Shown in pieces: positions 50,704-55,682 of a stretch of DNA of 64,000 bases. The stretch comes from Candidatus Nanosyncoccus sp. Its GTDB lineage: Bacteria; Patescibacteriota; Saccharimonadia; Saccharimonadales; Saccharimonadaceae. The notes below the pieces were generated by a model, which worked only from the letters and a program-made list of their open reading frames with translations, was not told the origin of the DNA and did not search any database. Where the stretch lies: NCBI GenBank assembly GCA_045589895.1, contig JAZNPY010000002.1:34546-98545 (forward strand), given 5' to 3'. The position numbers and the translations under genes were made by a program. Each line of letters begins with the position of its first letter. Position 1 is the first letter of the stretch.

Positions 50704-52794
50704 TTAAACCTTATTGATGACTGGAATAACAATTGGGGTATGGCCAGTGGCATCAAAGAGAATATGAGTGACGTCCTCTTTGATTTCATCTTTCAAGACC
50801 CTGAGCTCTGGATCGGTAGAAATTGATTTGTCGGTTTTTTGACGAAGATAGTGACGGATTTTACCGATTAATTCTTCGGAATTATCAAGATAGATAAAAG
50901 CACGAGAAACAATGTCTGGAGTTTTGACAAGATGACCATTCTTCTTCGAGATGGTGAGAATAATGACGAAAATACCTTCACGAGAAATGTGGATACGATC
51001 TTTCACTACTGCTTCATGAACTGGTTGATCGGCATCATCGAAAAGTTTGTTACCGGCGTGGATACGACCGTTTTTACGAATAGTTTTATCTGGCAAAAGT
51101 TCAACAATATCGCCATCATCAGAAAGAATAATACGTTCGCGCGGGATGCCAATCACATTTTCTGCCATCTCGGCATTATGCTCGAGCATGTAAAATTCAC
51201 CATGGTATGGCATGTAGTTCAACGGACGAGTGCGTTCCAAGAAATCAACGTGATCTTCATAGTAAGCATGGCCAGAAAGATGGAGCGGACCAATATTCGT
51301 AAGGTGAGTTTTGCCATTCTGGATAACCTGAGCGCCTTCACGGAGGAGACCATCGACCGTATTCACAACGTGTGGCTCGTTGCCAGGAATCGGGTTCGAG
51401 CTGAAAACAATAGTATCGGTAGATTTAATCTTAATATACTTATGTGCGCCGGTGACCATGCGATTTAGAACTGCATTCAGCTCACCCTGAGAACCAGTAC
51501 AGACGATTGTAACTTTATCGTCTGGAAGTTTGATAATGTCTTCCATTTTCACGATTGTGTCTTTTGGAATTTTAATTTGTTTAGTGCGAAGAGCTACTTC
51601 GACGTTATTAATCATGGAGAAACCAGCAAAAGCGACTTTGCGGCCACGCTTGGCAGCTTCTTTTAGGACGAGCTCGATGCGAGAGATTTGGGACGAGAAA
51701 CATGAAACGATGATACGACCCGTCGCATAGTGATCCATGACCATACCCATACTATCACCGACATCAAATTCGGAATGTGGGTGGTGACCCGGGGAATCAA
51801 TATTGGTTGATTCGTTGAGCATGAGGGTGATTCCCTCGTTCTTCACAATTTCATCAATGCGCTCAAGGTCGGCTGGAGTGCCGATTGGATTAGCTTCGTG
51901 ACGCCAGTCTCCAGAAAGATAGATGACACCGTTCGGAGTACGAATAACAATGGCGGTGCTACCAGGGATAGAGTGGAGAACATGAATAAATTCAACACTA
52001 AAATGCTCGGAAATCTGGAATTTTTCATGTTTCAAAGGATTGACGACCTGATAGTTCAAATCTGGGACCTCGTCTAGTTCGGACATCTGTTTTTTGATCA
52101 TGCCAAGAGTAAAATCAGTGCCGTAAATTGGAGTTAGAGGGTTAAATTTCGGGAGGAGATGGCGACAAGCACCAATGTGATCAAGATGAGCGTGAGTAAA
52201 GAGAATTGCCTTTACTTTGTCACGATTGTCTTCGAGGTATTTGATGTCTGGGATGAGGTAGTTAACACCTGGGTAGTCGTCGCCAGCAAAAAGTACACCC
52301 ATATCGACAACTATCATTTCGGATTTATATTCGATAATCGTCATGTTCTTGCCGATGCCAAATTCGCCAACGCCGCCGATAGGAATGATGCGGACGGCAT
52401 CAGGATTAGGGCGAGCCGCTTTTAGCTGGGCGTTAGTAACTTGTGAACCCTGGTAGCCATTGTAGCGGGATTTGTTGACTGGGACACCGATAATGTGCTG
52501 AGTGGCCTGGGCATTAACATCCTGAGAAAGCATACGTTGATGATGAACCATCTCACCTTTTCTGGTTGAAACGGAAAGATTAACCTTACGCTCATCTGGA
52601 ACGACAGCTTTCTTTTTCGACTTTTTAGCGGCAGGTTTAGCCGTCGATTGCTTTTTTGTCAGCTTAGCATTCTTGACAGTAGGTTTCTGCTTTGAAACCT
52701 TCTGGCGTTCCTCGAACTCCTTTCTAATTTTTGGCAAACGCTCTTTGCTCATTTCTAGCAAACGTGCGCGACGTTCTTGTTCTTGTTGATTCAC
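50704..52794 (-). CDS. rnj: Ribonuclease J with basic N-terminal extension
   Basis: GKNM, THAHLDHIG, ESTN, TGSQGE, HLSGH. Confidence 0.95.
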   Translation of the reverse strand: MNQQEQERRARLLEMSKERLPKIRKEFEERQKVSKQKPTVKNAKLTKKQSTAKPAAKKSKKKAVVPDERKVNLSVSTRKGEMVHHQRMLSQDVNAQATQHIIGVPVNKSRYNGYQGSQVTNAQLKAARPNPDAVRIIPIGGVGEFGIGKNMTIIEYKSEMIVVDMGVLFAGDDYPGVNYLIPDIKYLEDNRDKVKAILFTHAHLDHIGACRHLLPKFNPLTPIYGTDFTLGMIKKQMSELDEVPDLNYQVVNPLKHEKFQISEHFSVEFIHVLHSIPGSTAIVIRTPNGVIYLSGDWRHEANPIGTPADLERIDEIVKNEGITLMLNESTNIDSPGHHPHSEFDVGDSMGMVMDHYATGRIIVSCFSSQISRIELVLKEAAKRGRKVAFAGFSMINNVEVALRTKQIKIPKDTIVKMEDIIKLPDDKVTIVCTGSQGELNAVLNRMVTGAHKYIKIKSTDTIVFSSNPIPGNEPHVVNTVDGLLREGAQVIQNGKTHLTNIGPLHLSGHAYYEDHVDFLERTRPLNYMPYHGEFYMLEHNAEMAENVIGIPRERIILSDDGDIVELLPDKTIRKNGRIHAGNKLFDDADQPVHEAVVKDRIHISREGIFVIILTISKKNGHLVKTPDIVSRAFIYLDNSEELIGKIRHYLRQKTDKSISTDPELRVLKDEIKEDVTHILFDATGHTPIVIPVINKV

Positions 52795-52927: not shown

Positions 52928-54688
52928 CTAGTCTTCTTCGACGATTTCGAGGTGTAAATCTTCCAGCTGGTCTTCGTCTACTACGGAAGGCGAGTTCATC
53001 ATCAGATCGATACCAGAGCCATTCTTCGGGAAGGCGACAATATCGCGAATGTTTTTTGCGTCAGTTAAGACCATGAAGATACGCTCAATACCAAAGGCAC
53101 AACCAGCATGAGGTGGAGCTCCGAATTTGAAGGCATTTAACATACCACCAAAGCGTTCCTCAACGTATTTTTTATCATAGCCTAAAATGCCAAATACTTT
53201 GTACATAATGTCTGGATTATGGTTGCGGACGGCACCGGAACAGATCTCGTAACCGTTCATGACCATGTCATATTGGTCGGCGACAATGGCAAGTTTTTCT
53301 TCGTCAGTCTTGGCGGCCTCCAAAGTCTCGAGTCCACCTTTTGGCATAGAGAATGGGTTGTGGCCAAAATCAATCTTCTTTTCGCCGTCATTAAACTCAT
53401 AGAACGGAAAGTCAACGACCCAACAGAGGGCGACTTTATTATCATCTTTAAGATTAAAGTGATCAGCGAAGCTAATGCGTAAAGCACCTAAAACTTTGTT
53501 GACCTTTTCGCGTGTATCGGCGCCGAAGAAAACTGCATCGCCATTTTCAGCTTTTGTTAGCTCTTTGATTTTTGCAAGCTCTTCTGGCTTGAGGAATTTG
53601 GCGATCGGCGATTTTTCAGTGTCGTTTTCATAAATAATGTAAGCGAGGCCGCCAGCACCAAGTTTTCTGGCTTGGTCGGTAAAGCCGTCAATCTGGGAAC
53701 GAGTGAGTGAGGCGCCGCCTTTGACGCAAAGTGCCTTTACGCATGGACTCTGGAAAACTTTGAAATCTGTATCTTTTAAGGCATCAGTTAGCTCAATCAG
53801 TTCCATGTCATAGCGAAGATCAGGTTTATCTGTGCCATATTTTTCCATAGCTTCAACATATGGGATGCGTGGAATATCCTCGGAGACCAACTCTTTGTGT
53901 GCAAAATCTTTAACTAGATTTTTAATTAGAGGCTCAACCTCTCGACGGACGATTTCACCATCGTCAACGAAGGCCATCTCAAGATCAAGCTGATAGAAGT
54001 CACCGTAAAGACGGTCAGCACGTGGATCCTCATCGCGGAAACATGGGGCGATTTGGAAGTAACGTGGCACGCCACCAACCATGAGCAGCTGCTTGAACTG
54101 TTGTGGGGCTTGAGGGAGAGCGTAAAACTTGCCAGGATGGATACGCGAAGGAACTAGAAAATCACGGGCGCCTTCTGGAGACGAGTTAGCAAGAATCGGA
54201 GTAGTAACCTCGATAAACTCGTGATCAAGCATATATTTTCGCATGAATTGGTAGAAATCAGAGCGGCGACGAATCAAGTTCTGCATGCTCGGACGGCGAA
54301 GATCAAGATAGCGGTATTTTAGACGGAGGTCTTCACCGGTCTCTGGACCGTCGTCGTGAGTGTTAACTGGAAGGGTTTCAGACTTATTCAAAAGCTCGAG
54401 AGTATCTACAACGAGTTCAATATCGCCCGTTTCGATATTTGGATTCTTTAGTTCTGGAGCACGCTCGCGAATTTTGCCGGTCGCAGTAATTACAAATTCG
54501 TCACGTAGACTCTCCGCAAGCCTAAAAGCGTCTTTAGTATCAGGGGTAATGACGAGCTGGATAAGGCCTTTGTGGTCGCGAAGATCAATGAAGATTAGTC
54601 CACCATGGTCACGTCGAGAGTTGACCCAGCCGGCTACGGTTACATTCTTACCAAGATAGTTTTTTAACTCTGTAGATAGTGTTCTCAT
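52928..54688 (-). CDS. aspS: Aspartate--tRNA ligase
   Basis: RDHGGLIFIDLRD, RYRYLDLRR-like, PEGARDF, ALPQAPQ, GAPPHAG. Confidence 0.98.
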   Translation of the reverse strand: MRTLSTELKNYLGKNVTVAGWVNSRRDHGGLIFIDLRDHKGLIQLVITPDTKDAFRLAESLRDEFVITATGKIRERAPELKNPNIETGDIELVVDTLELLNKSETLPVNTHDDGPETGEDLRLKYRYLDLRRPSMQNLIRRRSDFYQFMRKYMLDHEFIEVTTPILANSSPEGARDFLVPSRIHPGKFYALPQAPQQFKQLLMVGGVPRYFQIAPCFRDEDPRADRLYGDFYQLDLEMAFVDDGEIVRREVEPLIKNLVKDFAHKELVSEDIPRIPYVEAMEKYGTDKPDLRYDMELIELTDALKDTDFKVFQSPCVKALCVKGGASLTRSQIDGFTDQARKLGAGGLAYIIYENDTEKSPIAKFLKPEELAKIKELTKAENGDAVFFGADTREKVNKVLGALRISFADHFNLKDDNKVALCWVVDFPFYEFNDGEKKIDFGHNPFSMPKGGLETLEAAKTDEEKLAIVADQYDMVMNGYEICSGAVRNHNPDIMYKVFGILGYDKKYVEERFGGMLNAFKFGAPPHAGCAFGIERIFMVLTDAKNIRDIVAFPKNGSGIDLMMNSPSVVDEDQLEDLHLEIVEED

Positions 54689-54709
54689 ATCTATAAATTA
54701 TATTACATC

Positions 54710-54738
54710 TTGACAAATTTGTAAATGTTTGATACAAT
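54710..54738 (+). promoter_or_regulatory. Promoter divergent from aspS
   Basis: TTGACA-N17-TACAAT. Confidence 0.8.
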
Positions 54739-54816
54739 AGATAGGTCGTCTTTTGCGGAACGTCATTTTTGTAGATGGCACGGTCGGTCGTAAAGACGAT
54801 GCAATTAAACAGGAGT

Positions 54817-54921
54817 ATGAACTTTAATATGCGTATCGGACTTAAGCGAGCTTACGCTCGTAAAAAGTTACAGATTCCTCCTGCCCCATGGCAAGAGTTT
54901 ATCGAAACGAAAATTGCATAA
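54817..54921 (+). CDS. Unannotated 34-aa small protein MNFNMRIGLKRAYARKKLQIPPAPWQEFIETKIA
   Basis: Own promoter, SD CAGGAG 6-7 nt upstream, and stop immediately before a terminator; below the ORF-track size cutoff. Confidence 0.6.
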   Translation: MNFNMRIGLKRAYARKKLQIPPAPWQEFIETKIA

Positions 54922-54949
54922 AAAATACCACCCTTCGGGGTGGTATTTT
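54922..54949. terminator. Bidirectional intrinsic terminator
   Basis: AAAATACCACCC-TTCG-GGGTGGTATTTT. Confidence 0.9.
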
Positions 54950-54950
54950 G

Positions 54951-55682
54951 CTATTCCTGAGCCTTTAGCTTGGCATCGATTTTTTTGCGCATAGTGTTAT
55001 AAAAATCTTCTTCGGTCTTACCGCTAGAAAGATCGATATATTCACCGTCAAGATAGAAGGCTGGGGTGCCAGGAAGATCGACTTTTTTGCCAATACCCAT
55101 GTCGAAACTGATTTTTTTCGAGACTTCTTTGGATTTCATGTCGGCTTTAAATTTATCAACATCACCCTGACCGTCTGAGACTCCCTCAAATAAGCTGGAG
55201 AAGGTCATTTCCCTTTCGTCGGCATCAATGTCCTCCCAGTTTGACTGATTAGCAAAGAGCATATCAGTATACTCTTTCCAGTAGCCTTGCAAGCCAGCAG
55301 CTTCGGCAGCAGAGGCGGCCGCAGTGCCATTCTGATGATAGGACAACAGATAGTTACGATAGACGACGGCAAGCTTACCCTTGTATTCTTCGACGAGTTT
55401 ATTTACGCGTGGATTAACAGAAGCACAACCTGGACACTGAAAGTCAGCATACTCAACTATAATAACTGGGGCGTTCTTGTCGCCTTTCACATGGTCGCCG
55501 ATTCCACCGTTGTCATCGTTGCCAGAGATAATGCTGTTGAAATCATATTTGCTGTAGTCAACTTCGTTCGCTTTTTTATCCATCAAACTCCAAGTGGCAA
55601 GGCCGATCAAAACGGCTAGTGCTAGGACAGCAGCAATAACCCCAAGTACCGAAAACCCAGATTTCGAGAAACTTCTTTTCAT
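54951..55682 (-). CDS. DsbA family thioredoxin-fold protein
   Basis: N-terminal TM, EYADFQCPGC, GTPAF. Confidence 0.92.
   Translation of the reverse strand: MKRSFSKSGFSVLGVIAAVLALAVLIGLATWSLMDKKANEVDYSKYDFNSIISGNDDNGGIGDHVKGDKNAPVIIVEYADFQCPGCASVNPRVNKLVEEYKGKLAVVYRNYLLSYHQNGTAAASAAEAAGLQGYWKEYTDMLFANQSNWEDIDADEREMTFSSLFEGVSDGQGDVDKFKADMKSKEVSKKISFDMGIGKKVDLPGTPAFYLDGEYIDLSSGKTEEDFYNTMRKKIDAKLKAQE

Follow-up and report, generated by a model that had tools for sequence, protein, structure and literature searches.

Organization of the locus

A gap of 262 nt separates aspS (52928-54688, − strand) from a DsbA-like gene in the 64,000-nucleotide stretch of Candidatus Nanosyncoccus DNA analyzed here, hereafter called the window, and contains a complete unit on the + strand. 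The promoter of this unit (54710-54738) is composed of a −35 element TTGACA (54710-54715), a 17-nt spacer and an extended −10 element TGaTACAAT (54730-54738), in which a TG precedes the TACAAT at 54733-54738. It agrees with the consensus at 11 of 12 positions, is the top + strand site in the 2 kb scanned, and stands back-to-back with the promoter of aspS (− strand, 54725-54697). In genomes of the same genus the promoter occupies an unchanged position and conforms to the consensus ATGCTTGCA-N17-TTTGCTAGAAT. Downstream are found a leader stem-loop (54745-54800), a Shine-Dalgarno sequence CAGGAG (54810-54815) located 13 nt ahead of the conserved start codon, and a short coding sequence. Among relatives, the Shine-Dalgarno context is AUUAA(G/C)GAG, with a similar spacing of 10-13 nt.

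The unit is closed by an intrinsic, bidirectional terminator that is readable on both strands (54925-54949; AUACCACCC-UUCG-GGGUGGUAU, flanked by an A run on its 5′ side and a U run on its 3′ side), in which the stem 54925-54933 / 54938-54946 encloses a TTCG loop and is trailed by a T run. This terminator is common to the short gene and to the convergent DsbA-like gene, ending 1 base short of the stop codon of the latter (54951-54953). A simple terminator scan did not list it because only four T follow the stem where the rule needs five. The convergent gene (54951-55682, − strand) codes for a membrane-anchored protein with a CPGC motif, assigned by Pfam to DsbA/Thioredoxin_4. An RNase J-like gene, identified by eye from its HxHxDH motif, is located at 50704-52794 of the window.

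The initial annotation had described a self-contained transcription unit with a near-perfect promoter and a strong terminator behind the ORF, and our analysis bears out this description: promoter, leader, Shine-Dalgarno sequence, ORF and terminator are all present, and each of the sequence words that it quoted lies where it had been placed. The predicted 206-nt transcript folds at −65.5 kcal/mol (z = −3.9), which beats 200 of 200 dinucleotide shuffles. Rfam matches in the window are tRNAs alone, with weak terminator-like hairpin matches in the region of the unit.

The short ORF is a conserved coding sequence

The ORF had been proposed to encode 34 residues from an ATG at 54817 (MNFN). That codon lies 1 base after the Shine-Dalgarno sequence and is absent from relatives, all of which start at the equivalent of ATG 54829, four codons downstream; the product is therefore the 30-residue protein MRIGLKRAYARKKLQIPPAPWQEFIETKIA (P0001; MRIGLKR...), encoded on the + strand at 54829-54921 including the TAA stop codon (54919-54921). 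Public gene calls yield the identical product.

DNA searches of relatives revealed that the conserved part of the locus is the ORF. When translated, every match from the genus reads MRI[GRK]LKR, followed by a variable basic linker and by KI[PA]PAxWQEFIE(I* or TKIx*), and the indels that distinguish these relatives are exclusively in-frame and located in the basic linker. Neither frameshifts nor premature stops were found in more than 190 copies from the genus and more than 300 copies from across the order. In a set of 43 unique 90-nt coding sequences from other genera, entropies at the three codon positions are 0.71, 0.47 and 1.32, variation thus falling mostly on third positions, and pN/pS is 0.37; the coding frame is open in 43/43, and the two alternative frames contain stops in 33/43 and 24/43. 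Codon-level conservation in relatives, which had been suggested as a check, is clear on all these counts. The option of a regulated microprotein is thereby upheld as far as the existence of a real, conserved coding sequence is concerned, while the option of a purely non-coding RNA is contradicted by the intact frames and the third-position bias. The unit is a protein gene, and neither a non-coding RNA nor a type I toxin. A hairpin internal to the coding sequence (UGCC-N4-GGCA) was also considered and dropped; the Ala codon varies across the order (entropy of 1.1).

Distribution across Saccharibacteria

The gene belongs to an unnamed family; of the genera sampled from the Saccharibacteria order (GTDB: Saccharimonadales), about 80% have a member. 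Using a profile of the peptide, exactly one intact copy was detected in 191 of 201 genomes of the genus (128 of the 134 high-quality ones). This first profile yielded almost no matches beyond the genus. Relatives across the order were traced by inspecting, in 28 further genera of this family, what lies convergently downstream of the DsbA orthologue; most of them carry a 30-codon ORF, MPIA[IV]EFVS[ST]RRKKIAVDVVPAEWQLYIAH, convergent with DsbA; intermediates such as MSISIEVAPARRQKIKVEILPAKWQEFIEI and MPVKVKIVATRRSRVEVRVRPAEWQEFLTY join this ORF to the form found in the window. A broader profile matched 129 of 301 genomes of the order, and the best profile 310 of 397 high-quality genomes representing 202 of 249 genera. 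Matches to the best profile are nearly always single and cover profile positions 1-30, with the 30-residue consensus MPIAIEFVSSRRKKIAVDVVPAEWQLYIAH. Because the divergent genus to which the window belongs was left out of the best profile, 310 of 397 is a lower bound.

When 401 genomes sampled across the phylum were searched, 19/19 matches belonged to the order, and about 375 other Patescibacteria gave none. Searching 1.84 billion representative proteins exhaustively with a profile returned 91 cluster representatives of 26-90 residues each, the longer ones being mostly over-extended start calls and a few carrying short C-terminal tails; no fusion to another or larger domain was observed among the 91. 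Public sources label members only as “hypothetical protein”, and our literature search found no description of the gene, nor of a Saccharibacteria ribosome structure.

Features of the 30-residue protein

Members of the family share the pattern M-P-[IV]-x-[IV]-x-x-[VA]; x-[ST]-[RK]-x-x-[KR]; [IV]-x-V-x-[IV]-x-P-A-x-W-Q-x-[YF]-[IL]. This pattern reads as two strand-like stretches separated by a basic turn (SRxK) and followed, at the C-terminus, by an amphipathic helix whose Trp is invariant (PAxWQxYI). The strand-like stretches follow Met-Pro and alternate hydrophobic and charged residues. The genus of the window carries a derived, more basic version (MRIxLKR...PAPWQEFIE). AF2 predicted only the C-terminal helix, both for the window peptide (residues 22-29, pLDDT 72) and for a typical family member (residues 23-27, pLDDT 61), the two models being otherwise low-confidence coils. 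Since the helix alone is predicted, folding of the peptide probably requires a partner or oligomerization.

No hydrophobic segment is present, the top 11-residue Kyte-Doolittle score being −0.24 in the window peptide and no higher than 0.89 in the other members computed. The initial characterization of the peptide as basic holds only for the genus of the window (net charge of +5), the other members computed ranging from +1 to +5. The peptide is devoid of cysteines and hence would have no role in thiol exchange.

Sequence searches of Pfam, NCBIfam, PHROGs and the PDB with single peptides and profiles returned nothing significant, and the family and PDB searches gave no similarity to a ribosomal protein family or PDB chain. 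Several candidate relationships were tried and rejected. A CsrA-like mini-protein (CsrA/RsmA) was considered on account of MLILTRR-like and IGIDAP-like stretches and a GGA hairpin, and hhalign gave a probability of 0.03%. A reduced bS21, suggested by an MPVxKV start, gave a null hhalign result, S21 being encoded elsewhere in the genome. Half of an AbrB/SpoVT/MazE N-domain reached a probability of 1.5% over 4 columns, its strand-turn-strand-Pro-helix likeness being apparent by eye only. A 316-residue ORF with a similar motif (L031) has no Pfam match and its resemblance is probably due to chance. Finally, because L34, L36, L35, L33, L31, L28, S20 and S21 are encoded elsewhere, the peptide would not replace any of these small ribosomal proteins.

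A covarying 5′ leader with a conserved GGUCG motif

The leader was initially reported to close on itself, which is confirmed by our analysis and supported by covariation. Its outer stem, P1, is formed by 54745-54753 and 54792-54800, with the core words TCGTCTTT (54746-54753) and AAAGACGA (54792-54799) pairing with each other. P1 encloses a variable interior hairpin (54762-54779), in which GTCAT (54762-54766) pairs with ATGGC (54775-54779). Directly 5′ of the 3′ strand of P1 lies an unpaired, conserved GGUCGU (54786-54791), overlapped by a second GGUCG at 54782-54786. The arrangement of GGUCG, 0-5 nt and the 3′ strand of P1 recurs in about 30 of 39 leaders of the genus and in most leaders of the family, where the motif takes the form GGUCGAA. 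In its fullest form within the genus, the leader comprises the 5′ strand of P1 (e.g. AUCGCUC), AUUUCCCAA, the hairpin and UUUGCGAGGUGGG, and on the 3′ side GGUCGU, 1-4 bases, the 3′ strand of P1, AAACAUUAAGGAG, about 12 nt and AUGCGUAUC.

Compensatory variants of P1 occur in the genus (UCGCUC/GAGCGA, GUCGCCU/AGGCGAU, UUGCUC/GAGCAA, ACCGCUC/GAGCGGU, GCACUCU/AGAGUGU and UUGGCUCG/UGAGCCAA, besides the window's own GUCGUCUUU/AAAGACGAU). In genera of the family other than this one, P1 spans 9-11 bp and GGUCGAA comes directly after it; across 18 such sequences 97.9% of cells are paired, double-sided changes occur in 5 pairs (17 cells), and the covariation score is 0.39 vs 0.27 in shuffles, with 0 of 500 reaching 0.39 and slid partners giving at most 0.17. 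More distant families again have a 5′ stem-loop with a different interior: P1 recurs between families, and the cores differ, being of the GGUCGAA, GGUCGU, GGUCCG or GGCCAG type.

Structure and sequence constraint extend to the ribosome-binding region. In other genera the Shine-Dalgarno sequence sits in the loop of a GUAC-AAGGA-GUAC hairpin, and many relatives within the genus have a small hairpin (GAUAC-AUGC-GUAUC) around the start codon, which a weaker GUAUG/CGUAU pairing could likewise enclose in the window. Within the genus ATGCGTATC is invariant, and codons 2-3 are fixed at synonymous sites.

A first covariance model (R1), built on one leader subtype, was too narrow and missed the window's own leader. 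A model of the family leader (R2) gave one strong match per genome, the remainder being noise, with no sign of a regulon, and its matches always adjoin dsbA where coordinates are comparable. A second copy of the genus-type leader was not found in the window's own genome. The leader thus exhibits one property expected of an autoregulatory element of the ribosomal-protein type: a conserved, covarying structure beside the Shine-Dalgarno sequence of its own mRNA, in one copy per genome. The RNA-family scan that had been recommended, run with Rfam 15 at both gathering and permissive cutoffs and covering the window plus 38 related loci, gave no match to the leader, only weak terminator-like matches being returned. 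A riboswitch in general was rejected, as the interior and GGUCG vary between families and no aptamer core is conserved across distant lineages. The leader has been lost from three species of the genus, in which the −10 box stands 8-9 nt ahead of the ATG; the leader is therefore dispensable.

Long-range pairings

The initial annotation further proposed that the RNA can fold end-to-end and hide its Shine-Dalgarno sequence. The complementary words on which this proposal was based exist, namely CTCCTG (54878-54883) in the ORF, and ATGCAATT (54799-54806) vs AATTGCAT (54912-54919). The end-to-end fold is nevertheless not supported on comparison, for the ATGCAATT/AATTGCAT pairing needs the TKIA tail of this species and is absent from close relatives. 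Occlusion of the Shine-Dalgarno sequence by CUCCUG is predicted in the window (P of 0.72), but it reaches P ≥ 0.5 in only 9 of 38 homologues from the genus, and the CUCC word is absent from the corresponding part of the ORF in other genera. Some of these genera have instead a CCUCC inside a hairpin of the 3′ UTR.

On the − strand of the gap, the promoter scan found a single promoter-like site (54725-54697), which is directed toward aspS. The transcription that converges on the unit is that of dsbA, predicted to end at the common terminator. We also rejected a leader or arrest peptide (attenuation; SecM/MifM-like): the strong terminator begins within 3 nt of the ORF, and what follows is mostly a convergent gene.

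Genomic neighborhood

No adjacency is more constant than that of the peptide gene and DsbA, which is retained through local inversions. A DsbA-like gene adjoins the microprotein gene in 38 of 44 loci of the genus, and the first comparison showed it in one locus of another family too. Of 49 loci drawn from further genera and families, 46 have DsbA in convergent orientation. In these 49 loci, the gene upstream of the peptide gene codes for CorA (21), MgtE (3) or an MFS protein (10), CorA or MgtE being directly upstream and co-oriented in 24 of 49. A CBS-domain gene lies beyond DsbA in 38 of 49, often with aspS next. In the genus of the window the upstream neighbor varies (aspS, uppP, murJ-like and others). 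A link to DsbA or to Mg2+ transport is a lead only, because gene order is generally conserved, the spacer is a mere terminator and the genes form separate transcription units.

Proposed function and alternatives

We consider it highly probable that the locus codes for an independently transcribed, probably highly expressed, soluble protein of 30 residues, whose leader would determine how stable its own mRNA is and how well it is translated, possibly through feedback. High expression is suggested by the near-consensus promoter with its extended −10 element and by the strong terminator. The mRNA would open with a dedicated cis-acting stem-loop made of P1 and the unpaired GGUCG, followed by the Shine-Dalgarno/start-codon hairpin. 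Such a leader would guard the tiny mRNA at its 5′ end and set its rate of translation, and feedback by the protein itself would be the most likely input. Our best guess is that the microprotein is cytoplasmic.

Several observations sit uneasily with this model. RNA binding by the protein is putative, and the net charge of some members is as low as +1, which sets them apart from ribosomal and arginine-rich RNA-binding peptides. The leaderless species of the genus show that the leader is dispensable. The sequence of the leader outside P1 differs between families, which would fit a fast-evolving protein site or a plain stabilizer equally well. The conserved neighbors, DsbA, CorA/MgtE and CBS, are left unexplained.

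A simpler account of the leader, credible though on balance rather unlikely, is that the 5′ stem-loop and the terminator only shield a short mRNA from RNase J and 3′ exonucleases, without sensing or feedback, the loop bases serving as a landing pad for the ribosome or S1. Consistent with this account, the distance from the predicted 5′ end to P1 is 5-8 nt in every lineage, whereas the interior varies freely, the loop is A/U-rich in other genera, leaderless variants exist, and the window contains an RNase J-like gene. However, a plain stabilizer would have no need for a GGUCG at a fixed place beside P1 or for recurrent hairpins at the Shine-Dalgarno sequence and start codon, nor would it call for synonymous sites of codons 2-3 to be frozen within the genus.

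The protein could alternatively be a lineage-specific ribosome- or RNA-associated protein whose leader mimics, through P1 and GGUCG, its binding site on a stable RNA of the cell, rRNA or another, so that excess peptide represses its own translation. We regard this as unlikely in this specific form, even though a tiny, single-copy protein that is widespread in the order and endowed with strong expression signals, and with a covarying leader of its own that lies a few nucleotides before the Shine-Dalgarno sequence, would be well suited to such a role. The basic turn of all members and the strongly basic N-terminus in the genus of the window point in the same direction, as does the precedent of tiny lineage-specific ribosomal proteins elsewhere. 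Against it stand our searches, in which no ribosomal protein family or PDB chain resembled the peptide, the presence elsewhere of genes for bS21, bL34, bL36, bL35, bL33, bL31 and bL28, the null comparison with the S21 profile, and the nearly neutral charge of some members. No 16S or 23S gene was recognizable in this MAG assembly.

It is improbable, in our view, that the microprotein is a Mg2+- or envelope-linked regulator that modulates CorA/MgtE, the CNNM-like CBS protein or the membrane DsbA, with a leader sensing Mg2+ or another ion. The case for this idea is the order-wide neighborhood described above, together with the persistence of the DsbA adjacency through local inversions and the existence of small regulators of Mg2+ transporters in enterobacteria, MgtS and MgtR. 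These regulators are, however, membrane helices, whereas the peptide lacks any hydrophobic segment as well as cysteines. The neighboring genes are separate transcription units in mixed orientations, the upstream one changes within the genus of the window, and conserved gene order is general, so that adjacency may be inherited and not selected. The leader itself is small, its core is not conserved between families as riboswitch aptamers are, and it matches neither the M-box nor any other Rfam family.

We find it extremely improbable that the unit is a type I toxin-like mRNA, a purely non-coding RNA or a dual-function RNA: the unusual stability of the transcript and the predicted pairing of the window's Shine-Dalgarno sequence would fit such a role, but these are outweighed by clear protein-level selection, by the single copy per genome in about 80% of the order's genera, by the lack of a hydrophobic segment, by the orientation of the only − strand promoter-like site of the gap toward aspS and away from the ORF, and by the poor conservation of both long-range pairings. 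Nucleotide-level conservation of parts of the coding sequence and 3′ UTR within the family would fit an added role of the mRNA at the RNA level.

Significance

Saccharibacteria genomes measure about 0.7-1 Mb. That one copy of the gene has been kept in about four-fifths of the order's genera despite such small genomes suggests that it is important. The gene has been missed or left as a “hypothetical protein”; Pfam, NCBIfam, PHROGs and the PDB contain no relative of it, and Rfam has no family for its leader. Our results indicate that genes of 30 codons can be called confidently in Saccharibacteria genomes from comparative data alone. Now that Saccharibacteria are amenable to cultivation and genetic manipulation on laboratory hosts, the unit offers a compact target of about 200 nt that may expose lineage-specific machinery of translation, RNA metabolism or ion homeostasis. 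Our most far-reaching proposal, which we put forward as a speculation with doubtful prospects, is that of a hitherto unrecognized core strand-turn-strand-helix microprotein of Saccharibacteria that is assembled onto an RNA of the cell, perhaps the ribosome, represses its own mRNA through P1/GGUCG, and is possibly tied to Mg2+ homeostasis through the CorA/MgtE/CBS neighborhood. If true, this would pair a new protein family with a new class of cis-regulatory RNA.

Comparison with known systems

The unit recalls the autoregulated leaders of S15, L20 and S8, where a small, abundant protein (abundance being presumed here from the expression signals) is likewise preceded by a covarying stem-loop beside the Shine-Dalgarno sequence, with one leader per genome. 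Unlike those systems, the present one has no match to a ribosomal family or to Rfam, some members are not basic, and mimicry of rRNA is putative. Tiny lineage-specific ribosomal proteins, such as bS22 and bL37 of mycobacteria and Thx of Thermus, resemble the family in their size (24-33 residues), their restriction to one lineage, their single copy and the fact that they are overlooked or unnamed in annotations. Those proteins are uniformly rich in arginine and lysine, whereas the members described here have acidic residues, a strand-like alternation and a Trp-containing helix, and their association with the ribosome is putative. MgtS and MgtR, small enterobacterial proteins that regulate Mg2+ transporters, are also about 30 residues long, and in about half of the loci the gene lies beside Mg2+ transporter genes; they are, however, single-pass membrane helices of unrelated sequence, whereas this peptide is predicted to be soluble, with no transmembrane segment.

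At the level of gene organization, the type I toxin mRNAs txpA/RatA, bsrG/SR4 and fst/RNAII of Gram-positive bacteria share with this unit a short ORF, a highly folded mRNA, convergence at a bidirectional terminator and possible occlusion of the Shine-Dalgarno sequence. The initial annotation had drawn this analogy to type I toxins, and it breaks down in several respects: the product is not a hydrophobic toxin, the sequence scan found no antisense RNA gene, the convergent partner is a gene for a 243-residue DsbA protein, and, whereas type I toxins are patchy and multi-copy, this gene is single-copy and widely kept in about four-fifths of the order's genera. Finally, the aprE and ermC leaders, stabilizers of Bacillus mRNAs, similarly place a stem-loop a few nucleotides from the 5′ end in an RNase J-encoding organism, but here conservation extends beyond the stem-loop to the GGUCG motif and to the hairpins at the Shine-Dalgarno sequence and start codon.

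Leaderless loci and the promoter overlap with aspS

The peptide gene occurs without the folded leader in three species of the window's genus (loci L015, L018 and L044), where the encoded peptide is unchanged. At each of these loci a −10 box lies 8-9 nt upstream of the peptide ATG, and the mRNA is therefore leaderless. In the window, the peptide promoter (+ strand) overlaps back-to-back with the aspS promoter (TTTACA-17-TATAAT, − strand) within positions 54697-54738, which makes competition for RNA polymerase between the two units possible. The window also contains a 696-aa RNase J-like ORF of the metallo-beta-lactamase/beta-CASP type (50704-52794, − strand; HxHxDH motif identified by eye), which bears on 5′-end-dependent decay of short mRNAs. 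Scanning the window's own assembly (15 contigs, 0.69 Mb) with universal-primer words revealed no recognisable 16S or 23S rRNA genes; a weak bS21 gene is located on contig C8 (8621-8749).

Related sequences and order-wide neighbourhood

A few genomes, including G342, G377, G378, G401, G1105 and G1117, each contain two matches to the peptide profile; these may reflect either paralogy or a duplication in the assembly. At locus L031, a 316-aa ORF (1459-2409, + strand) without a Pfam match has a start (...VPPLTWQEFIETHP) resembling the peptide's C-terminal motif, a likeness that is probably due to chance.

Across the order (loci L070-L123), a recurrent gene block runs from corA or mgtE through the peptide gene and dsbA to a CBS-domain (CNNM/CorC-like) gene, often followed by aspS. 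The peptide gene-dsbA pair is flanked by two to three Mg2+-transport-type genes.

Terminator and 3′ UTR in other genera

At L070, L073, L085, L093 and other loci, a hairpin (AACUCUC...GAGAGUU) lies in the 3′ UTR between the peptide-gene stop codon and the terminator, and carries an anti-SD-like CCUCC. For genera lacking CUCC within the peptide ORF, this CCUCC is a possible pairing partner of the SD. Elsewhere in the family of the window's genus (L070-L102), the 30-codon peptide ORF and dsbA share a downstream terminator whose sequence, ACACCCCAAGGCACCGGGGUGU, is kept in more than 15 genera, loop AAGGCAC included. Such sequence-level conservation is atypical of intrinsic terminators.
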